IMG/VR virus record: IMGVR_UViG_648276647_000015
Coordinates: 1-13,303 of that record
DNA: 13,303 nucleotides
DNA from: a virus
Taxonomy: Duplodnaviria > Heunggongvirae > Uroviricota > Caudoviricetes
Direction: 5' to 3' (one strand)
In this document: one piece after another, positions 4,081 through 12,891 of the stretch
Layout: each line of letters starts with the position of its first letter
Position numbering within the stretch: the stretch's first letter is position 1
Made by a program: the position numbers and the translations under genes
The notes under the pieces: generated by a model
Database searches by the model: none
Told to the model about the DNA's origin: nothing
What the model saw: the letters and a program-made list of their open reading frames with translations, nothing else

Positions 4081-4503
4081 TCAATGCACTACGACAGAAT
4101 CGCCGGGCGACCCACCACCGCTGAAATGTGCTTTCCGGTAAACGGCCTGGACTGCATCATCATGCGCATCAATTGCCGTACTCAACGCTTCCTGCGCCGC
4201 CAGTAATGCACGGCGCTCCAGGGTATCGAAGATGCAGAGTCGGTGACGCAGCTCGCGCGGAAGAATTGCCAGAACCGCAGGGATGAGTTTCTGAATTTTT
4301 TCCCTTTGCGCTTTCGTTTCACCTTTCAACCAACGGTGATAGATATTCTGCTGATTGTTCCAGTCCTTGCCTGGTACAAGGGGCAATTCGCCGCCCCCCT
4401 GGCGCAGATATTCTTCAGTAATTGCGTTAGCGACCCACGCCTGCCCTTTTTCGGCTGCCAGGGCTAACAACACTGATTCGATATGCTCATGCCTGATTTT
4501 CAT
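4081..4503 (-). CDS. ydaT: CII-like regulator YdaT-like protein, 140 aa
   Basis: Sequence (MKIRHEHIESVLLALAAEKGQAWVANAITEEYLRQGGGELPLVPGKDW...) and 140-aa length match my recollection of Rac YdaT; ATG overlaps the stop of the upstream Cro-like gene as ATGA; AGGAG RBS 9 nt upstream. Confidence 0.8.
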   Translation of the reverse strand: MKIRHEHIESVLLALAAEKGQAWVANAITEEYLRQGGGELPLVPGKDWNNQQNIYHRWLKGETKAQREKIQKLIPAVLAILPRELRHRLCIFDTLERRALLAAQEALSTAIDAHDDAVQAVYRKAHFSGGGSPGDSVVVH

Positions 4504-4742
4504 GAATCAACCGCTCCTATGCTGTTTTCGCTATGCTTACCGTCTGGGGGGAATACATCGTCAAGTCCACAATGAGCGCCAAGCCGATTAAGGGTAGAAA
4601 CAATTTTTCTGCACTCCTCTAGTCCAGGGGTACGAAAATTTGCTTCGTAATTTGCCAGTCGGCTTTGTATCCACCCTAACTGAACAGCAAGTTGTCTTTG
4701 AGACAGCCCAAGCTGTTTTCGATATGTTGAAATTTTGTTCAT
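4500..4742 (-). CDS. ydaS: Cro-like HTH (XRE-family) regulator, YdaS-like, 80 aa
   Basis: HTH signature QRQLAVQLGWIQSRLANYE; divergent from the repressor gene across an operator region; GGAGG RBS with 6-nt spacer; first gene of the minus-strand operon. Confidence 0.8.
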   Translation of the reverse strand: MNKISTYRKQLGLSQRQLAVQLGWIQSRLANYEANFRTPGLEECRKIVSTLNRLGAHCGLDDVFPPDGKHSENSIGAVDS

Positions 4743-4838
4743 TGAAAACCTCCGATGACAATTTTAAACACATCTTGTGTTATATGGTCAAGCTGTTTTG
4801 TGTTTTATGTAAATCACGATTCGTGATACAAGGATGCA
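4743..4838. promoter_or_regulatory. Divergent immunity control region (oR/pR-pRM-like) with two 15-bp palindromes: AACAC-ATCTT-GTGTT (4767-4781) and ATCAC-GATTC-GTGAT (4813-4827)
   Basis: Leftward promoter candidate: -35 TTGACC (plus-strand 4786-4791) and -10 TTTAAA/TAAAAT (about 4761-4766), with the first palindrome in the spacer. Second palindrome lies 12 bp upstream of the repressor ATG. Confidence 0.6.
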
Positions 4839-5258
4839 ATGGAAAAAGAAAACGAAAAAATTGCCGCTAGTAGGCTCAATGACAAAATTGCAATGCGTCT
4901 TAAAGAGCGCAGGCAGAAGCTTGGTTTATCTCAAGGAAAACTTGCTGAAATCTGCGGATGGACGCAATCGCGTATAGGTAACTATGAGGCGGGCAGCAGA
5001 AATGTTGGAGTGCATGACGCTGTCGTATTGGGAAAGGCACTTGGCATATCTCCTCCTGAGCTCCTCTTTGGAGAACAGGAATCTTCTGAATTGTGGTTAA
5101 ATGAATCCCAACGAAAACTTCTTGAGTTGTTTAACCAGCTACCGGGCTCAGAACAACAACGAATGATTGAGCTATTTGAAGTCCGGCTAAAAGAAATCGA
5201 TGAGTATGTAGAAAAATATTTGAGAGGCAGGCTTAAAGATAATCCCTCACCGGAGTAA
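4839..5258 (+). CDS. racR: Prophage repressor, RacR-like (XRE-family HTH, no S24 peptidase domain), 139 aa
   Basis: HTH signature QGKLAEICGWTQSRIGNYE in the N-terminal half; divergent to the cro-like gene; 139 aa is too short to include a LexA-type autocleavage domain. Symbol assigned by context with the YdaS/YdaT-like pair. Confidence 0.7.
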   Translation: MEKENEKIAASRLNDKIAMRLKERRQKLGLSQGKLAEICGWTQSRIGNYEAGSRNVGVHDAVVLGKALGISPPELLFGEQESSELWLNESQRKLLELFNQLPGSEQQRMIELFEVRLKEIDEYVEKYLRGRLKDNPSPE

Positions 5259-5288
5259 TGAGCTTGCTATCACAGTAATATGCCAATC

Positions 5289-5312
5289 AGCCCGCTATCA
5301 GCGGGCTTTTTT
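5289..5312 (+). terminator. Rho-independent terminator after the repressor gene
   Basis: Stem AGCCCGCT (5289-5296) / AGCGGGCT (5300-5307), 3-nt loop, followed by TTTTTT. Confidence 0.75.
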
Positions 5313-5341
5313 GTACCATCATCATATGACACTCACCACAA

Positions 5342-5384
5342 AACACATTTCGTGTTGACATAAGAAAACGCATTGTGTTTAATA
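5342..5384 (+). promoter_or_regulatory. pL-like early-left promoter with operator: AACAC-ATTTC-GTGTT (5342-5356) abutting -35 TTGACA (5355-5360), 17-bp spacer, -10 TTTAAT (5378-5383)
   Basis: Consensus -35 hexamer and 5/6 -10; the palindrome has the same 5+5+5 architecture as the one in the cro promoter spacer; an imperfect third copy AACGC-ATT-GTGTT at 5367-5379. Confidence 0.55.
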
Positions 5385-5564
5385 AGCATATCCAAACAAC
5401 GCCCCCACCAGAGAACGGCAGGACAATACCTCGAGTTATCCAGCCACTGAACAGGGCTAAGTAGCCAGCCTGAGGCATACGAACATGACGGCAGTTGTTG
5501 ATTGATACAAAGCGCAGTAGATAAAACGTTCCGCCACCCGGCGTTAAGGGGAAATGAGGTCAAC

Positions 5565-5717
5565 ATGGATACTATCGATCTTGGCAACAACGAATCTCTG
5601 GTATGTGGCGTGTTTCCCAACCAGGATGGAACGTTCACCGCCATGACTTATACCAAAAGCAAGACATTCAAAACTGAAACGGGCGCACGTCGCTGGCTTG
5701 CCAGAAATACTTGCTAA
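5565..5717 (+). CDS. Small conserved prophage protein, 50 aa (MDTIDLGNNESLVCGVFPNQDGTFTAMTYTKSKTFKTETGARRWLARNTC); possibly YdaF/YdaG-family
   Basis: ORF track entry 5502..5717 starts at a TTG; the internal ATG at 5565 has a GAGG RBS 4 nt upstream. Position between repressor and kilR matches small Rac ORFs; identity uncertain. Confidence 0.4.
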   Translation: MDTIDLGNNESLVCGVFPNQDGTFTAMTYTKSKTFKTETGARRWLARNTC

Positions 5718-5915
5718 TCCATTATTTGGATTAATTCAATATTCTCGCTGTAGGGGTATAGCAGAAACCACCAAAGCCCGGAGGTGGTGAAATAAAACCG
5801 GGCACAACACGAAGGCGCATTTCCGATATCCATAAAGAGTCGGTTTTGTCTGTTAAATTTAAATGGTGGGAGTGCGCCTCCGGTTGTAAATAACGACATT
5901 GCTGTGTGTAGTCTT

Positions 5916-5963
5916 GGCGGCATCAGTTTTTTCTTGAAGTTCGGCTGATGTCCGCCCCTTTTT
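5916..5963 (+). terminator. Terminator-like structure upstream of kilR: imperfect stem GGCGGCATCAG / CTGATGTCCGCC with 18-nt loop, followed by TTTTT
   Basis: Read from sequence; long loop and one bulge make it a weak call. Confidence 0.3.
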
Positions 5964-6128
5964 AAAGTGAATTTTGTGATGCGGTGAATGCGGCTAAGCG
6001 CACGCGGAACAGTTAAAAGCATCAGTGTTATGGGTGGATTATCCGGCGTTAATTGTTAACTGGTTAACGTCACCTGGAGGCACCAGGCACCGCATCAACA
6101 AAGTTCATTTGTAAAAATGGAGATAATT

Positions 6129-6350
6129 ATGATTGCACATCACTTCGGAACTGATGAAATACCACGTCAGTGTGTGACTCCTGGCGATTATGTTCTTCAT
6201 GAAGGCCGGACATATATTGCCTCGGCAAACAATATTAAAAAGCGAAAACTTTATATTCGTAACCTGACCACAAAAACATGCATTACTGACTGCATGATTA
6301 AAGTCTTCCTCGGTCGTGATGGTTTACCTGTAAAGGCGGAGTCATGGTGA
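6129..6350 (+). CDS. kilR: KilR-type FtsZ/cell-division inhibitor, 73 aa
   Basis: Sequence [46 protein letters not shown]... recalled as Rac KilR; ORF track starts at 6117 but ATG 6129 has GGAG 6 nt upstream and gives the expected 73 aa. Confidence 0.75.
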
Positions 6351-6520
6351 TGACTAAGAAAATAAAATGTGCTTACCACCTTTGCAATAAAGAAATTGAA
6401 GAAAGCAAAAGTATTAAAAGACCACTTCATTTCATGCGTGGAGTTATCCCAACGACGGAAATGAAAAAATATTGTAGTGAAAGTTGTGTCGAAAAAGACC
6501 AGATGGCACACGAACTTTAA
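6350..6520 (+). CDS. ydaE: YdaE-like small Cys/His-rich (zinc-binding) protein, 56 aa; absent from the ORF track
   Basis: ATG at 6350 overlaps the kilR stop (TGATG); translation [56 protein letters not shown]; position between kilR and racC as in Rac. Confidence 0.65.
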   Translation: MTKKIKCAYHLCNKEIEESKSIKRPLHFMRGVIPTTEMKKYCSESCVEKDQMAHEL

Positions 6521-6594
6521 TTAACTGACTATGCGAAACTGAATTTATGCCAGCAATGGCAGGGATTCGCTCAACCTTAATTAAGGAGAAAAAC

Positions 6595-6870
6595 ATGATT
6601 ACCAGTTATGAAGCCACTGTTGTAACTACTGATGACATTGTTCACGAGGTTAATCTGGAAGGAAAGCGTATTGGCTACGTGATTAAAACAGAAAATAAAG
6701 AAACCCCATTCACTGTGGTTGATATCGACGGTCCATCAGGCAACGTTAAAACACTTCACGAAGGTGTCAAAAAAATGTGCCTGGTGCATACCGGAAAGAA
6801 TCTGCCCGCAGAAAAAAAAGCCGAATTTCTGGCAACTCTAATTGCAATGAAATTAAAAGGTGAAATCTGA
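6595..6870 (+). CDS. racC: RacC-like protein, 91 aa
   Basis: MITSYEATVVTTDDIVHEVNLEGKRIGYVIKTENKETPF... recalled as Rac RacC; ATG 6595 has AAGGAG 7 nt upstream, whereas the ORF-track start 6547 has no RBS. Confidence 0.75.
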   Translation: MITSYEATVVTTDDIVHEVNLEGKRIGYVIKTENKETPFTVVDIDGPSGNVKTLHEGVKKMCLVHTGKNLPAEKKAEFLATLIAMKLKGEI

Positions 6871-6970
6871 AAGAAATAGCCTGCGTATGGCGCAGGCTAT
6901 GAACAGTGTGTATCCGGCAAGATCATTCACTGAACAAACGAATTTTAATCTGAGTTGAGGTTAAAAAACA

Positions 6971-8989
6971 ATGAGCACCGATAAACAAGTTTACCCACTG
7001 TATTACGAAGCAAAAAATGACAAAGTAAGAAAACGTCTCGGTATTAAGGGCGGTTTTTACTGGGCTGAAGCGAAAAAATTATCCATTGCCATCTCCCGTG
7101 GTGCTGTTGCGATTGACGATGCTGGCTACGATGAAGATGACTTCAAAAAACCTGTTCGCGTCAATTTGCCCGTTGTTGATGACCTCCCGCCAGAAGGCGT
7201 ATTTGATACGGAATTCTGCAACCGTTACGAAAAAGGCGGGGAAGATGGCATCACAATGGTATTTATCGCGCCCTCACCCTCTGCGCAGGGCAAACCAGCC
7301 AGCACTGACAACACCAATGTTAATGGCGAAGACATGACGGAGATTGAGGAGAATATGCTACTCCCGATTTCTGGCCAGGAGCTACCCATTCGCTGGCTTG
7401 CTCAACACGGCAGCGAAAAACCGGTAACGCACGTTTCACGCAACGAACTCCAGGCATTACACATTGCACGGGCTGAGGAACTACCAGCTGTTACTTCCCT
7501 GGCTGTTTCCCACAAAACCAGCCTGCTCGATCCGCTGGAAATTCGCGATCTCCACAAACTGGTGCGTGATACTGACAGAGTTTTCCCTAATCCAGGCAAT
7601 TCAAGCCTGGGGCTGATGACTGCTTTTTTCGAAGCATACATGGACGCAGACTACACCGATCGCGGTCTGCTGACAAAAGAGTGGATGAAAGGAAATCGTG
7701 TTTCACGCATCACGCGCACGGCTTCCGGCGCTAATGCTGGCGGCGGGAACCTCACCGATCGCGGCGAAGGTTTCGTTCACGATCTGACGTCACTGGCGCG
7801 CGACGTAGCCACTGGCGTACTGGCTCGTTCAATGGACGTGGACATTTATAACCTTCATCCGGCACACGCTAAACGTGTCGAGGAAATTATCGCTGAAAAT
7901 AAACCGCCCTTTTCTGTTTTCCGCGACAAATTCATCACCATGCCTGGCGGGCTGGATTATTCCCGCGCCATCGTGGTTGCGTCCGTAAAAGAAGCACCAA
8001 TTGGGATCGAGGTTATCCCCGCACACGTCACTGAATATCTGAACAAAGTACTGACTGAAACTGATCATGCCAACCCTGATCCGGAAATCGTGGATATTGC
8101 CTGCGGTCGTTCCTCTGCCCCGATGCCGCAGCGTGTAACAGAAGAAGAAAAACAGGATGATGAAGAAAAACTGCAACCATCTTGCGCAATGGCAGATGAA
8201 CAGGCAACGGCTGAAACAGTGGAACCGGATGCAACTGAACATCATCAGGACACGCAGCCGCTGGATGCTCAGTCACAGGTAAATTCGGTTGATGCGAAAT
8301 ATCTGAAACTGCGGGCAGAACTCCATGAAGCCCGGAAAAACATTCCGCCCAAAAATCCTGTCGATGCAGACAAATTACTGGCTGCCTCTCGCGGAGAATT
8401 TGTTGAAGGGATTAGCGACCCGAATGATCCGAAATGGGTTAAGGGGATCCAGACCCGCGACTCTGTGTACCAGAATCAGCCAGAAACGGAACATAACGAC
8501 CAGAAAGCGGAACAGAACGACCCAAATACGCAACAAAACGAGCCAGAAACGAAACAGCCTGAGCCAGTAGTGCAACAACAGGAAACGGAGAAAGTTTGCA
8601 CCGCCTGCGGTCAGTCTGGCGGGGATAACTGCCCTGACTGTGGTGCGGTGATGGGCGACGCAACATATCAGGAAACATTCGATGACGAGAATCAGGTTGA
8701 AGTTCGGGAAAATGAGCCGGAGAAAATGGAAGGCGCTGAACATCCACACAAGGAGAATGCTGGCAGCGATCCGCATCGCGATTGCAGTGATGAAACTGGC
8801 GAAGCAGCAGCTTCATCATTAGAAAAACTCGACTGGAAAAGACAAGTGGTGATTGCGGCGGTTTACGGTTTATGTGCGAATCCTGCAGGTATAGCCTCAG
8901 CGCCATTAATTCCGGGTATTGCAATGATGATCGCAAACAAACTTGAAAATTTTGGGGTAACAGATGATGAGCACATGCCCGATTTTTGA
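6971..8989 (+). CDS. Large protein resembling the N-terminal non-nuclease region of RecE (exonuclease VIII); no PD-(D/E)xK nuclease domain; C-terminal CxxC-x15-CxxC zinc ribbon and acidic/Q-rich segment; 672 aa
   Basis: Occupies the recE position downstream of racC; central region ([44 protein letters not shown]...) matches my recollection of RecE; ends 26 nt inside gam. Homology is recalled, not computed. Confidence 0.65.
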
Positions 8990-9263
8990 TCGCATTGAAG
9001 AGCTGGCATGGTCACGCCACTACCAGAAGATCGTTCGCGAAGAAAAAGAAACGGAACTGGCGGACGACCTGGAAAAAGGTCTGCCTCAGCACCTGTTTGA
9101 ATCGCTCTGCATCGACCATTTGCAACGCCACGGTGCCAGCAAACAGGCAATCAGTCGCGCATTTGATGACGATGTTGAATTTCAGGAACGTGTGGCGGAG
9201 CACATCCGGTACATGGTTGAAACCATTGCTCGTCACCAGGTTGATATTGATTCAGAGGTATAA
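8964..9263 (+). CDS. gam: Gam (RecBCD inhibitor), short-form length, 99 aa
   Basis: Residues from [14 protein letters not shown]...[22 protein letters not shown]...[32 protein letters not shown] are near-identical to lambda Gam as recalled; N-terminal 15 aa diverge. Confidence 0.9.
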
Positions 9264-9268
9264 AACGA

Positions 9269-10054
9269 ATGAGTACAGCACTTGCAACACTGGCCGGGAA
9301 GCTGGCTGAACGCGTCGGCATGGATTCTGTCGACCCGCAGGAACTGATCGCCACTCTTCGCCAGACGGCATTTAAAGGTAATGCCAGCGATGCGCAATTC
9401 ATCGCGCTGCTGATCGTCGCCAACCAGTACGGACTTAATCCGTGGACGAAAGAGATTTACGCCTTCCCTGATAAGCAGAACGGCATTGTTCCGGTGGTGG
9501 GCGTTGATGGCTGGTCCCGCATCATAAATGAAAACCAGCAGTTTGATGGCATGGACTTTGAGCAGGACGATGAATCATGTACATGCCGGATTTACCGCAA
9601 GGACCGTAATCATCCGATCTGCGTTACCGAGTGGATGGATGAGTGCCGTCGCGAACCATTCAAAACCCGAGAAGGCAAAGAAATCATCGGACCGTGGCAG
9701 TCGCATCCCAAACGGATGTTACGGCATAAAGCCATGATTCAGTGTGCCCGTCTGGCCTTCGGATTTGCTGGTATCTATGACAAGGATGAAGCCGAGCGCA
9801 TTGTCGAAAATACCGCACACACTGCAGAACATCAGCCGGAACGCGACATCACTCCGGTTAACGATGAAACCATGCAGGAGATTAACACTCTGCTGATCGC
9901 CCTGGATAAAACATGGGATGACGACTTATTGCCGCTCTGTTCCCAGATATTTCGCCGCGACATTCGTGCATTGTCAGAACTGAAACAGGACGAAGCAGTG
10001 AAAGCTCTTGGATTCCTGAAACAGAAAGCCGCAGAGCAGAAGGTGGCAATATGA
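9269..10054 (+). CDS. bet: Bet (Red-beta single-strand annealing protein), 261 aa
   Basis: [27 protein letters not shown]... essentially identical to lambda Bet over full length as recalled; same 261-aa length. Confidence 0.95.
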
Positions 10055-10731
10055 CATCGGACATTATCCTGCAGCGTACCGGGATCGACGTGAGAGCTAT
10101 CGTGCAGGGGGATGATGCGTGGCACAAATTACGGCTCGGCGTCATCACAGCTTCAGAAGTTCACAACGTGATAGCAAAACCCCGCTCTGGAAAGAAATGG
10201 CCTGACATGAAAATGTCCTACTTCCACACCCTGCTTGCCGAGGTTTGCACCGGTGTGGCTCCGGAAGTTAACGCTAAGGCGCTGGCCTGGGGAAAACAGT
10301 ACGAGAACGACGCCAGAACCCTGTTTGAGTTCACTTCCGGCGTGAATGTTACTGAATCCCCGATCATCTATCGCGACGAAAGTATGCGCACCGCCTGCTC
10401 TCCCGATGGTTTATGCAGTGATGGCAACGGCCTTGAGCTGAAATGCCCGTTTACCTCCCGGGATTTCATGAAGTTCCGGCTCGGTGGTTTCGAGGCCATA
10501 AAGTCGGCTTACATGGCCCAGGTGCAGTACAGCATGTGGGTGACGCGAAAAGATGCCTGGTATTTTGCCAACTATGACCCACGAATGAAGCGTGAAGGCC
10601 TGCATTATGTCGTGGTTGATCGGGATGAAAAGTACATGGCGAGTTTTGACGAGATGGTGCCAGAATTCATCGAAAAAATGGACGAGGCACTGGCTGAAAT
10701 TGGTTTTGTATTTGGGGAGCAATGGAAATGA
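10051..10731 (+). CDS. exo: Exo (Red-alpha 5-prime to 3-prime exonuclease), 226 aa
   Basis: [50 protein letters not shown]... near-identical to lambda Exo as recalled; ATG overlaps bet stop as ATGA, as in lambda. Confidence 0.95.
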
Positions 10732-10958
10732 GCGCAGCCACAAAGCTCACAGGAGAAAAACCAGTGCGATACACAAAAGTCAAACCATGCCCTTTTTGTG
10801 GTTGTCCATCAGTAACGGTGAAAGCCATTTCAGGATATTACCGCGCGAAGTGTAACGGATGCGAATCCCGAACCGGCTATGGTGGAAGTGAAAAAGAAGC
10901 ACTCGAACGATGGAATAAACGAACCACTGGAAATAATAATGGAGGTGTTCATGTATAA
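10728..10958 (+). CDS. Lar-like zinc-ribbon protein (putative restriction alleviation), 76 aa
   Basis: CPFCG ... CNGCE double CxxC motif and EALERWNKR segment resemble the Lar family; occupies the lar/ralR position after the recombinase genes. ATG 10728 overlaps the exo stop (ATGA) and has GGGGAG 8 nt upstream; ORF-track start 10722 is too close to the RBS. Confidence 0.5.
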
Positions 10959-11115
10959 AATTACCGCCACTATTGAAAAGGAAGGTGGCACTCCTACTAA
11001 CTGGACAAGGTACTCAAAAAACAAAGTTAACCAAATCGGAATGCGAAAAAATGCTCTCGGGGAAAAAAGAAGCAGGCGTTTCCAGAGAGCAGAAAGTAAA
11101 ACTGATAAATTTTAA
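10951..11115 (+). CDS. Small phage protein, 54 aa ([44 protein letters not shown]...), possibly YdaC/DUF1187-like
   Basis: ATG 10951 with GGAGG 5 nt upstream; ORF-track entry 10879..11115 is an N-terminal extension without an RBS. Identity uncertain. Confidence 0.4.
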   Translation: MYKITATIEKEGGTPTNWTRYSKNKVNQIGMRKNALGEKRSRRFQRAESKTDKF

Positions 11116-11246
11116 TTGCGAGAAACTTCTGTCCTCGTGAGTTGCATTATATCCAAATTAGAACTTCATAGCTGATTATTAAAAATCAATCACGTCCGCC
11201 AGTATTCTGTATATTTACTGGCGGTCATATCGTAAGAGGTATGGCA

Positions 11247-11528
11247 ATGAATCTTGTGACACTCAAAACGTGGGGGAAACTCAGATATCCGGATAATCCA
11301 CCATCAATATCAACGCTGAGACGATGGGCAAGGAATGGAAACATTTATCCTGCACCTGAACTACACGGGAGGAGTTACAGGGTGGTTCCGGAGGCTTTCT
11401 ATATCAACCCAAATAAGGTTGATACCGATATAACACACCATCAGCCTAATGGGCGACAAGGGAGAGACAGTCCGTTACTGGAGAAGTTAAAACATGCAGC
11501 GGAAAAAATACGATCCCAATTTGCCTAA
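11247..11528 (+). CDS. xis: Excisionase (Xis-like), about 93 aa
   Basis: Directly upstream of and overlapping int by 35 nt as in lambda; motif STLRRWARNGNIYPAPELHGRSYRVVPEA resembles excisionase/MerR-like winged helix. ATG 11247 has GAGG 7 nt upstream (ATG 11241 is 1 nt from the RBS). Confidence 0.6.
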   Translation: MNLVTLKTWGKLRYPDNPPSISTLRRWARNGNIYPAPELHGRSYRVVPEAFYINPNKVDTDITHHQPNGRQGRDSPLLEKLKHAAEKIRSQFA

Positions 11529-12570
11529 AAACTTAACATATCGAAGGAGGGACAAAGCATATTACTGGCGCAACCCTCTGACGAAAGAAGAATTTACACT
11601 AGGTAAAATTTCAAGAAGAGATGCAGTAGCGCAGGCAATTGAAGCAAATCATTATATATACAAAAACTACTCTCCTGCTGCCTTAATTGAAAAGCTTAAA
11701 GGGTTCGACTCATTTACTATGGCAGACTGGATTGAACGTTACAAAACGATTCTTATAAGGAGAAAAGTGTCCAGAAATACTTATAAAATTCGGGTAAATC
11801 AACTGGAGACAATAAAAGAAAAATTGGGAGGGATTTTACTGACAGAAATAACCACTCGCCATATTGCCGAGTTTCTTGATTTGTGGATTGAAGGAGGGAA
11901 AAACACAATGGCAGGATCAATGCGTTCTGTGTTGTCTGATATGTTTCGTGAGGCCATTGTTGAAGGACGTATATCTCAAAATCCAGTAACGCCAACAAGA
12001 GCACCGAAAATAGTAGTTACAAGAGAACGACTGAAACTAAAGACATACAACTGCATCAGGGAGGCAGCAGATCAACTTCCGGCATGGTTCCCATTAGCTA
12101 TGGATTTAGCCCTTGTAACAGGACAACGTCGCGAAGACATAACGAATATGCGGTTCAGTGATATTTATGATGATCGTCTCCACATCAGGCAAATTAAGAC
12201 AGGAATGATGATTGCTATCCCCCTGTCACTCAGCCTTCCTGTCGCTGGTCTACGGCTTGGTACAGTAGTTGAACAGTGCCGCCTGGTAAGCCGGGGAGAT
12301 TATCTAATCAGTGCCGGGATTAGAAAAAACAGCCCTGACGGCAGCATTCACCCGGATGGCCTGACAAAAAAATTTGTCGCAGCCAGAAAATTAACAGGTA
12401 TCCAGTTCAGTGAAAACCCACCAACTTTTCACGAGATCAGAAGTCTGGCTGGACGATTGTACAAAGAAACATGTGGAGAAGAATTTGCTCAGCGTCTACT
12501 TGGCCACACATCGGAGAAGACAACAAAAATGTATCTTGATGAGAGAGAAAAAACGTACTTACTGCTCTGA
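11494..12570 (+). CDS. int: Tyrosine site-specific integrase, lambda Int family, 358 aa
   Basis: Alignable to lambda Int as recalled, with conserved catalytic region ...[14 protein letters not shown]...[17 protein letters not shown] (R, H-x-x-R, H, Y); last phage gene before the host junction. Confidence 0.9.
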
Positions 12571-12667: not shown

Positions 12668-12701
12668 AGACGTTTGCAACTGATTGATTTTAAATACAAT
12701 T

Positions 12702-12804
12702 AAAAAAAGACCGAATACGATTCCTGTATTCGGTCCAGGGAAATGGCTCTTGGGAGAGAGCCGTGCGCTAAAAGTTGGCATTAATGCAGGCTTAGTTGCC
12801 TTGC
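12702..12804 (-). ncRNA. sdsR: SdsR (RyeB) small RNA, about 103 nt
   Basis: Reverse complement of 12702-12804 reads GCAAGGCAACTAAGCCTGCATTAATGCCAACTTTTAGCGCACGGCTCTCTCCCAAGAGCCATTTCCCTGGACCGAATACAGGAATCGTATTCGGTCTTTTTTT, matching my recollection of E. coli SdsR, including the terminator hairpin (10-bp arms, 7-nt loop) and U-run. A CTATTCT -10-like element sits just upstream. Confidence 0.7.
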
Positions 12805-12891
12805 TCTTTAAGAATAGATGACGACGCCAGGTTTTCCAGTTTGCGTGCAAAATGGTCAATAAAAAGCGTGGTGGTCATCAGCTTAAATATT

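Follow-up and report, generated by a model that had tools for sequence, protein, structure and literature searches.

The interval ahead of kilR in a Rac-like Escherichia coli prophage very probably begins a Rac/Qin-type early-left operon

KilR and DicB block cell division. Leaky expression of the two explains both the importance of Rho/NusG function in K-12 and the growth arrest caused by OxyS; the signals ahead of kilR are therefore worth knowing. In K-12, repression of nusG by OxyS permits read-through into kilR (PMC5793797). A comparable arrangement has been described for the Qin prophage, whose dicBF operon comprises dicBp, ydfABC, dicF and dicB. There, DicA represses the PL-like promoter dicBp, which lies downstream of the repressor gene and is co-directional with it, and RNase III together with RNase E processes the small RNA DicF (PMC10448788). 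Terminated ydfABC-dicF transcripts and read-through transcripts coexist, both species having been detected at dicF (PMC10448788), and a 72-nt form of DicF carries an RNase III 3′ end (PMC5069750). K-12 Rac encodes the small RNA KilS (b4833; Bar et al. 2021, PMC8175672), which is northern-verified and Hfq-associated (RIL-seq), with a transcription start site at its 5′ end (1418502 in the supplement) and an internal RNase E site (PMC8175672). Because no Rfam family covers KilS, about one in three complete E. coli genomes carries it without annotation (it is found in 1676 of 5426). A dicF-related sequence beside kil in Rac was reportedly noted by Faubladier & Bouché in 1994 and by Conter et al. 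in 1996.

The window analysed here, a stretch of 13,303 nucleotides, is a Rac-like E. coli prophage. By blastn it is 93.5% identical at the nucleotide level to K-12 Rac across positions 5743-6978 (kilS through recE), kilR included. Phage Rac-SA53 matches 5866-6128 at 100% identity, and the Qin segment from dicF to just 5′ of dicB is 84% identical to 5914-6109 (196 nt). One relative genome is 99.4% identical over 5259-6128, and RefSeq labels its kilR ‘kil’. The noncoding interval is bounded by the repressor stop at 5258 and the kilR ATG at 6129. These ~800 bp very probably make up the promoter-proximal end of the early-left operon in a lambdoid prophage of Rac/Qin type. With equal confidence, the interval can be read as a promoter under repressor control, a small gene of the DUF1391 family, KilS together with its terminator, and an RNA leader that is folded (Table 1). 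Every part is assignable to described families and nearly all of what was observed is already known; the signals before kilR are of described kinds only, involving neither a hidden gene nor a new class of switch.

Table 1. Features of the window between the repressor gene and kilR, with the two flanking genes
Feature	Position	Strand	Details
DicA-like repressor gene	4839-5258		
Repressor-gene intrinsic terminator	5289-5313	+	Stem-loop 5289-5307, then T-run
Two operator-like palindromes	5342-5379		AACACATTTCGTGTT 5342-5356; AAAACGCATTGTGTT 5365-5379
Early-left (PL/dicBp-type) promoter	5355-5383	+	TTGACA-17-TTTAAT
5′ UTR of DUF1391 gene, ~180 nt	5384-5564	+	Small conserved hairpin CGCC-ACCC-GGCG 5532-5543; Shine-Dalgarno GAGG 5557-5560
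DUF1391 gene, ydaF/ydfA family	5565-5717	+	50 aa; Pfam PF07151
Empty sieB site	5697-5742		46 bp, versus 555 bp with opposite-strand sieB in K-12 Rac
Likely KilS promoter	5851-5866	+	Extended -10 TGtTAAATT 5851-5859; start-site equivalent G5866
KilS small RNA, 98 nt	5866-5963	+	5′ domain, single-stranded UUGCUGUGUGUAGUC, terminator hairpin
KilS intrinsic terminator	5916-5963	+	Stem 5916-5956, CC, then U5 5959-5963
Structured kilR leader	5959-6117	+	Predicted closing helix 5959-5986 with 6088-6117; 28 bp, two irregularities
STnc100-type core	5987-6087	+	Predicted; inside closing helix
Leader core elements			P2 5990-6005; variable hairpin near 6032-6044; P4 6046-6052 with 6064-6070; P5 6073-6087
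Leader pseudoknot	6010-6016 with 6056-6062	+	Strand after P2 with P4 loop
kilR	6119-6350	+	Shine-Dalgarno GGAG 6119-6122; ATG 6129; 73 aa

The repressor gene is followed by an intrinsic terminator in which, according to the terminator scan, eight pairs (six of them G-C) precede TTTTTT, with a fold of -14.2 kcal/mol. Downstream of it, the near-consensus promoter proposed earlier is present. It carries one mismatch and is the sole site within two mismatches of the 17-nt-spaced consensus in the 13.3-kb window; with 1.15 such sites expected from chance alone, it is the context rather than the match that makes it credible. The promoter lies 3′ of the repressor gene and runs in the same direction, like dicBp, and its positional homologue in K-12 Rac reads TTGACA-17-TATAGT. 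The -10 hexamer here lacks the conserved, usually essential A at position 2, and a consensus scanner passed over the site because of the T found there. Given the missing A and the rejection by the scanner criteria, the strength of the promoter is uncertain.

The two palindromes overlap the promoter at its -35 and -10 elements and in the spacer between them. Exact copies of AACAC-N5-GTGTT occur only at 5342-5356 and at 4767-4781, in the cro/repressor intergenic region, and near-exact copies are found at 5365-5379 (one mismatch) and, as ATCACGATTCGTGAT, at 4813-4827 (two mismatches); exact and near-exact copies alike are thus confined to the immunity intergenic region and the promoter. The promoter is thus overlapped by operators repeated from the repressor/cro intergenic region, an arrangement that the earlier note had not mentioned. 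K-12 Rac has the same operator layout with a palindrome of its own, TAGGC-N3-GCCTA, and its immunity differs in that the repressor here is DicA-like (29% identity) and not RacR. PL/OL of lambda likewise places a co-directional promoter 3′ of the repressor gene and overlaps it with operators repeated from the OR-like region. Unlike in lambda, there are two operator copies rather than three, neither an N gene nor nutL is present, and the repressor is a short HTH protein with no obvious LexA-like cleavage domain (Pfam reports HTH_3 only).

The 5′ UTR beyond the promoter is 76% identical to K-12 Rac upstream of ydaG and, from 5524 on, 87% identical to Qin; positions 5384-5564 contain no Rfam match. 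The small ORF that follows had been pointed out before, and it is real, belonging to the known ydaF/ydfA family, which the earlier note had missed. It matches PF07151 over profile positions 1-47 of 48 (E = 1.5e-29; 101.8 bits against a cut-off of 27.3), its product is 90% identical to YdaF and 92% to YdfA, and near-identical genomes carry this ORF in their RefSeq annotation. The DUF1391 gene is also the first gene in Qin dicBF. The description of the region between the repressor and kilR as low in coding density holds, this being the single ORF with family support; the minus-strand ORFs of 102 aa and 103 aa in the interval give zero Pfam matches.

In K-12 Rac, sieB (on the opposite strand) and ydaG stand between the promoter and KilS. 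Neither is present here, so that early-left transcription goes directly from the DUF1391 gene to KilS. The absence of a sieB-sized ORF, remarked on earlier, is borne out: K-12 SieB leaves no tblastn trace in the interval, no blastn block extends over K-12 sieB, and the block structure against K-12 Rac shows its 555 bp swapped for 46 bp. The same nucleotide alignment, which had been suggested as a way of detecting a sieB pseudogene, reveals none, only a clean replacement.

K-12 kilS maps onto the window on the kilR strand and directly 5′ of kilR, and the two sequences are 97% identical over 98 nt (MG1655). They share position, strand, terminator and a -10-like element; the published northern probes match the window, one with a single mismatch, and the fold has a z-score of -2.4. 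By analogy with K-12, where this was demonstrated, KilS would be a discrete Hfq-bound RNA here too. The candidate KilS promoter has the same sequence as in K-12, and because its -35 element is poor we infer its assignment. KilS probably has this weak extended -10 promoter of its own and hence could be produced in a lysogen.

KilS is the positional homologue of DicF, although it falls under the Rfam DicF threshold. The DicF model (RF00039) gives 41.1 bits here (E = 2.4e-7; gathering score of 48 not reached) and 39.1 bits for K-12 KilS, versus 76.7 bits for true DicF. At gathering thresholds Rfam reports nothing in the interval, and the DicF and STnc100 matches appear only in a permissive search. 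Both loci place a small RNA with a GGCGG...CCGCC terminator and U-run ahead of a conserved spacer (AAAGTGAATTTTGTGATG; 84% identical over 196 nt) leading to a small division-inhibitor gene. They differ in that ydfB and ydfC are missing here and the downstream inhibitor is KilR rather than DicB. Moreover, the DicF 5′ seed UUUCUGGUGAC and the ftsZ-pairing loop are both replaced in KilS, and KilS appears to have a start site of its own, while DicF arises solely by processing of the operon transcript.

The terminator-like hairpin reported previously at 5916-5963 proved genuine and is the KilS terminator, at -19.0 kcal/mol with U5; the DicF terminator folded in the same way reaches -15.9 kcal/mol. 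The terminator scan missed it because its loop is longer than 8. A G+C-rich hairpin with a U-run, as an attenuator would have, therefore lies between the promoter and kilR on the transcribed strand, and the Qin precedent suggests partial read-through at this site. It had gone unrecognized that this hairpin is part of KilS, a DicF-related small RNA already described. Another hairpin, claimed at 5788-5815, is unsupported: the fold of 5718-5865 is no better than those of shuffled sequences (z = -0.82), with the best local hairpin falling at 5776-5803.

The leader beyond the terminator stops a single nucleotide short of the kilR Shine-Dalgarno sequence and 11 nt short of the start codon. The Rfam model STnc100 (RF02076) scores 43.8 bits on it (E = 5.4e-8), short of its gathering score (47), and 34.4 bits on the Qin leader. 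The fold has z-scores of -3.7 and -4.5. In an alignment of 37 diverse relatives, pairing holds in 94.6% of cells, and double-sided changes are seen in 109 cells versus 35.7 in shuffles (0/500), with covariation supporting the closing helix, P2 and P5. Since the MAFFT alignment is out of structural register for P4 and the pseudoknot, both were analysed per sequence by script, which gives a mean of 7.2 matched pseudoknot nucleotides versus 5.3 when permuted (0/5000). Several junction and loop nucleotides of the core are invariant.

With the STnc100/PasD prophage small RNAs the leader shares the closing helix, P2 with a bulged A, the invariant UCACCNGGAGGCACCNGGCAC hairpin and a variable hairpin whose loop forms the pseudoknot. 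Here, however, P2 is GCGGC/GCaCGC and not CCCCC/GGaGGG, the closing helix has 28 bp and not ~9 bp, and the domain is followed by an ORF and not by a seed and terminator. The larger STnc100 subfamily consists of free-standing small RNAs with their own terminator, whereas none follows the leader here. In the dicB/kilR-linked subfamily the closing helix measures 17-32 bp, with compensated variants, versus 9 bp (median) among free-standing members, and an ORF (dicB, kilR or others) invariably follows the core at a distance of 26-45 nt. An STnc100-type domain is also found 5′ of terB in phage P7, and such domains are usually preceded by an intrinsic terminator. ORFs reading from an ATG in the closing helix in the large subfamily were rejected as translations of the following terminator, not conserved proteins. 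A tRNA-like leader was likewise discarded, as an ARAGORN search of the window gives neither a tRNA nor a tmRNA. The GTTAAC repeats listed in the earlier note are present (GTTAAT 6048-6053, GTTAAC 6055-6060 and GTTAAC 6063-6068) and correspond to one hairpin plus the pseudoknot strand of this domain; that they are part of a known RNA family, STnc100, had been overlooked.

By analogy with Qin dicBF, three steps probably gate kilR: control by the repressor, incomplete termination at KilS, and processing of the leader helix by RNase III. Transcription of the repressor gene would stop at its own terminator. In a lysogen, the repressor should hold the PL-type promoter shut, because the palindromes shared with the immunity region overlap it. 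Upon derepression, transcription would cross the DUF1391 gene and enter the KilS gene. The KilS terminator would stop transcription from KilS's own weak promoter and may also halt part of PL transcription before kilR, thus acting as a fixed attenuator. In read-through RNA, the terminator U-tract and the next 23 nt are predicted to pair with the 30 nt ending just before the kilR Shine-Dalgarno sequence, and the resulting 28-bp duplex would close the pseudoknotted STnc100-type domain. RNase III could cut this duplex as in Qin dicBF, from which the putative site is carried over at 84% sequence identity; the Qin RNase III 3′ end lies 19 nt beyond DicF, at the homologous position, assuming the annotated 53-nt DicF coordinates. 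Such a cut would part KilS from a kilR mRNA whose leader is short and open. Rho/NusG-dependent silencing of kilR, as in K-12, would add a further layer. It cannot be placed here, because no C-rich, G-poor stretch of the Rho-loading type (C>G bubble) occurs in 5800-6085; only 5384-5461 is C-rich.

The earlier note had offered an attenuator, an antitermination site, a cis-regulatory RNA and a decayed gene as readings of the interval. RNA features 5′ of kilR do exist, in the form of the small-RNA terminator and the structured leader, but the decayed gene and the antitermination site did not hold up. A decayed sieB or a ydfB/ydfC/dicB-type gene might be suspected, given that K-12 Rac carries sieB and ydaG at this place and Qin carries ydfB and ydfC, and that in one genome the homologous leader is annotated by PGAP as a ‘partial DicB’ pseudogene. 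However, tblastn searches of 5259-6128 with SieB, YdaG, YdfB, YdfC and DicB yield no hit up to E = 10, the sieB cassette was cleanly exchanged, the long minus-strand ORFs lack Pfam matches and the covariation is of the RNA type, leaving this reading next to no probability. A nut-like or put-like site for processive antitermination of early-left transcription is scarcely more credible. The interval does lie just 3′ of a PL-type promoter, where nutL of lambda and putL of HK022 sit, but the ORFs after the promoter are DUF1391, kilR, ydaE and racC, with no N-like gene among them, and no boxA/boxB-like element was seen by eye in 5384-5564. Furthermore, the structured domain lies 3′ of the terminator that would need to be overridden, and free-standing STnc100 copies end in their own terminators.

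Two other alternatives concern the function of the RNAs. As the positional homologue of DicF, KilS could be an antisense antidote to kilR, in the manner of a type I toxin-antitoxin system, or an inhibitor of ftsZ translation, and in a full-length fold its UGUGUGUAGU pairs with the kilR start region. Yet seed duplexes with the kilR start (z = -0.55) and the ftsZ start (z = -0.44) are at the level of shuffled targets, in a comparison of low power whose DicF-ftsZ control is itself marginal (z = -1.8). The replacement of the DicF seed and ftsZ-pairing loop also argues against such a role, as does the K-12 RIL-seq partner, which is yncL and neither kilR nor ftsZ; we consider it very improbable. A switch acting in cis, by which the STnc100-type core would respond to a ligand, a protein, temperature or Hfq and control kilR translation, decay or termination, is less remote but still unlikely; the core would then do more than serve passively as a site of RNase III processing. 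The strongly constrained core with its invariant nucleotides and covarying pseudoknot would suit a switch, as would its constant placement ahead of ORFs in the dicB/kilR-linked subfamily, its occurrence 5′ of P7 terB and its common position after a terminator. On the other hand, the structure does not include the kilR Shine-Dalgarno sequence or start codon, neither of which is sequestered by the predicted folding, and the larger, free-standing subfamily argues for a trans-acting or scaffold role. The domain matches no Rfam riboswitch or ribozyme family, and neither PMC12370729 nor bioRxiv 10.64898/2026.05.13.724894 reports a function for the core.

Together, DicF and KilS might constitute one modular family of prophage small RNAs and the STnc100-type domain a dedicated cis-acting gate, a joint reading that we regard as doubtful and that may go beyond published statements in both its parts. 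If the family is modular, the part upstream of a fixed junction is reshuffled by recombination among two 5′ seed types and several terminator-loop types, and prophages would thereby swap small-RNA target specificity with the processing signals retained. If the domain is a gate, its 17-32-bp helix, of RNase III length, would decide expression of kilR, dicB and other accessory genes after read-through. KilS and DicF do look like seed-swapped forms of one scaffold: mosaic DicF/KilS variants exist, and 24 distinct upstream variants have one junction in common.

The ~870 bp that separate the repressor stop from kilR do not form a new regulatory device, and they are not a pseudogene either. The low coding density that the earlier note saw there is real, supported protein-coding sequence amounting to 153 bp, and the parts of the interval are already described elements of Rac/Qin-type prophages. 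What remains of interest is the relationship between KilS, an Hfq-bound sRNA of K-12 Rac, and its positional homologue DicF in Qin, together with their modular seed variants and the STnc100-type leader that stands before division inhibitors.

The window is a Rac-like prophage whose orientation is the reverse of that in K-12, and its genes come in the order listed below. K-12 Rac is 93.5% identical to window 5743-6978 from the kilS region through recE, and phage Rac-SA53 is 100% identical across 5866-6128. Among complete E. coli genomes, four carry the entire 870-bp interval at ≥99% identity and 215 have at least 80% of it covered. The repressor is DicA-like (29% identity), not RacR-like, and the recombination module (6971-10731) is unlike K-12 recE-recT. 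A RalA antitoxin sRNA (10957-11136, minus strand; Rfam 212 bits) adjoins a Lar/RalR-like ORF (10722-10958, plus strand), so the Rac type I toxin-antitoxin pair is present in the window. Directly after the integrase (11494-12570) lies a core-genome sRNA pair, SraC/RyeA (12698-12842, plus) and SdsR/RyeB (12702-12801, minus). The prophage thus appears to occupy a site next to ryeA/ryeB, different from that of Rac in K-12.

Table. Features of the window, in window positions
Feature	Position	Strand	Remarks
YdaT-like gene	4081-4503	minus	from sequence and ORF reading
Cro-like HTH gene	4500-4742	minus	from sequence and ORF reading
Exact palindrome copy	4767-4781		between cro-like and repressor genes
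Two-mismatch palindrome copy	4813-4827
HTH repressor	4839-5258	plus	from sequence and ORF reading
Exact palindrome copy	5342-5356		abuts -35 hexamer
One-mismatch palindrome copy	5365-5379		over spacer and start of -10 element
Leader closing helix	5959-5986 with 6088-6117		takes in KilS U-tract; stops one base before kilR GGAG
Leader pseudoknot strand (GTTAAC copy)	6056-6062 with 6010-6016
Leader hairpin arms (GTTAAC copies)	6046-6052 with 6064-6070
kilR	6129-6350		then ydaE, racC
Genes 3' of racC			in order: RecE-N-terminal-like gene, recT, YqaJ exonuclease, lar/ralR, excisionase, integrase
672-aa protein, Exonuc_VIII N-terminal domain only			first in recombination module
RecT	9269-10054
Separate YqaJ-type exonuclease	10051-10731		after RecT

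Allowing two mismatches to consensus, the window has a single promoter site, the one proposed in the earlier note (TTGACA-17-TTTAAT, 5355-5383); a consensus scanner passed over it because position 2 of the -10 hexamer is T, not A. The exact palindrome AACAC-N5-GTGTT occurs at only two places in the 13.3 kb. In K-12 Rac, the positional homologue of the promoter is TTGACA-17-TATAGT, whereas the flanking palindrome is a different one, TAGGC-N3-GCCTA, with three to four further copies in the racR-ydaS intergenic region. The same architecture with immunity-specific operators is as expected of a PL/OL analogue, and 5355-5383 would be an operator-controlled early-left promoter. The equivalent promoter in Qin, dicBp, is PL-like and repressed by DicA (PMC10448788). 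The 50-aa ORF at 5565-5717 proves to be a DUF1391 protein (Pfam, E = 1.5e-29) with 90% identity to YdaF of Rac and 92% to YdfA of Qin. Just 5' of its Shine-Dalgarno sequence, within a block common to the window, K-12 Rac and Qin, is a hairpin (CGCC-ACCC-GGCG, 5532-5543) that could affect translation of this first gene.

Two hairpins had been singled out further downstream. That at 5788-5815 is not above chance (fold z = -0.82 for 5718-5865), and the second (5916-5963; -19 kcal/mol, then U5) makes a good intrinsic terminator. The latter belongs to KilS, since the ncRNA annotated between sieB and kilR in K-12 (kilS, b4833) maps onto window 5866-5963. KilS was predicted from RIL-seq and confirmed by northern blot (Bar et al. 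2021, PMC8175672). The supplement of that study lists transcription as starting at the KilS 5' end, and RNase E as cutting internally 31 nt further on. The published probes match the window, and the start equivalent, G5866, is preceded by an extended -10-like element (TGtTAAATT, 5851-5859) that is the same in K-12.

The Rfam DicF model scores 41.1 bits against 5903-5957 (E = 2.4e-7), 39.1 against K-12 KilS and 76.7 against DicF itself; the first two lie below its gathering score (48). The homology is nevertheless clear from synteny with Qin, whose dicF-dicB spacer is 84% identical over the GGCGG...CCGCC terminator and the next 150 nt of the window. Viral contigs hold intermediates in which a KilS-type 5' seed is joined to a DicF-type loop (L017, L066) or a DicF-type seed to a KilS-like hairpin (L030), as well as further loop variants (L046, L058, L074), and these point to DicF and KilS as a single modular sRNA family. 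KilS-type sequence is found in 1676 of 5426 complete E. coli genomes (31%). Eight rows sampled across the ranking of these genomes have no annotated feature under the KilS match, and no Rfam family covers KilS.

The GTTAAC direct repeats reported near kilR are present (6048-6068) and are parts of an STnc100-type structured leader. Rfam STnc100 scores 43.8 bits against 5947-6136 (E = 5.4e-8; gathering score 47), and folding of the leader region gives z-values of -3.7 and -4.5 against shuffles. More than 120 loci carrying the invariant hairpin motif turned up in a scan of viral contigs; from these, 37 representatives with mutual identity <88% formed the covariation sample. In this sample, pairing reaches 94.6% across the closing helix, P2 and P5, with 109 double-sided changes versus 35.7 in shuffles (0/500), a signal that collapses once the partners are slid. 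P2 alternates between CCCCC/GGaGGG and GCGGC/GCaCGC, and the variable pair of P5, left free in the search pattern, keeps its complementarity in all 91 unique sequences. The strand 3' of P2 and the loop of the hairpin that follows it pair via many different sequences; the matches average 7.2 nt versus 5.3 nt when permuted (0/5000), indicating a pseudoknot.

The larger leader subfamily is Rfam's STnc100 proper, with a median closing-helix length of 9 bp; a short stretch leads on to its own terminator, making it a free-standing sRNA. The leaders of the window and Qin belong to a subfamily with closing helices of 17-32 bp, among them compensated variants like CCUUGCAAUGCAGUG/CACUGCAUUGCAAGG, and with an ORF (dicB, kilR or others) 26-45 nt downstream.

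In Qin, some dicBp transcripts stop at the dicF terminator and others continue into dicB. The DicF 5' end is released by RNase E and its 3' end by the terminator or RNase III, the RNase III product being 72 nt, 19 nt beyond the annotated 53-nt form (PMC10448788; PMC5069750). The equivalent point in the window, 19 nt past the terminator stem, falls between 5977 and 5978, within a duplex sufficient in length for an RNase III substrate. From this processing and the long duplex at the homologous place, we infer a model of repression, read-through and RNase III cleavage for kilR. The 5355 promoter would be held off by the repressor, while KilS could be made from its own start site, with its terminator shielding kilR from that transcription. 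On derepression, a fraction of transcripts would read through and form the long helix, which RNase III would cut to give a kilR mRNA with a ~30-nt open leader. K-12 kilR has a further layer of Rho/NusG-dependent silencing (PMC5793797); the C-rich, G-poor stretch that would place it in the window was sought in the leader and not found.

Other readings of the interval fare less well. The earlier note had allowed for a decayed gene, and sieB is indeed missing, 46 bp standing in place of the 555 bp that bear it in K-12. However, tblastn of SieB, YdaG, YdfB, YdfC and DicB found no remnant in the interval and its two ~100-aa minus-strand ORFs have no Pfam match; with the K-12 Rac comparison also against it, this option is ruled out to the extent that sequence evidence allows. 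A reading of 5384-5564 gave no support for a nut/put-type antitermination site in the interval, and duplex energies, a weak test, gave none for antisense control of kilR or ftsZ by KilS. The conserved pseudoknotted STnc100-type core might have a role beyond that of offering an RNase III site; published work reports no function for it (PMC12370729; bioRxiv 10.64898/2026.05.13.724894).

A 9-codon ORF inside the leader (ATG GGT GGA ... TGT TAA, 6030-6059) stays in frame across a 6-nt insertion in Qin and has TTG as its start in K-12 Rac; as it lacks a Shine-Dalgarno sequence, this conservation is probably coincidental. At leader locus L002 (NZ_AP045174), PGAP places a 'partial DicB' pseudogene (4767-4847) on non-coding leader equivalent to window ~6025-6105. 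As K-12 DicB has no tblastn match to the window leader, this call appears to be an artefact of annotating the conserved dicB/kilR leader. Several viral contigs carry two to three tandem STnc100-type domains, 253 or 484 bp apart (L014, 2331-3273; also L024, L026, L042, L050 and L081). P1-like phages, namely P7 (72453-72568; L005, 2501-2616) and D6, have a counterpart of the kilR/dicB-type leader core (86% identity to window 5980-6094) in the ban operon, flanked by tRNA genes and by terB, which lies 38 nt downstream.
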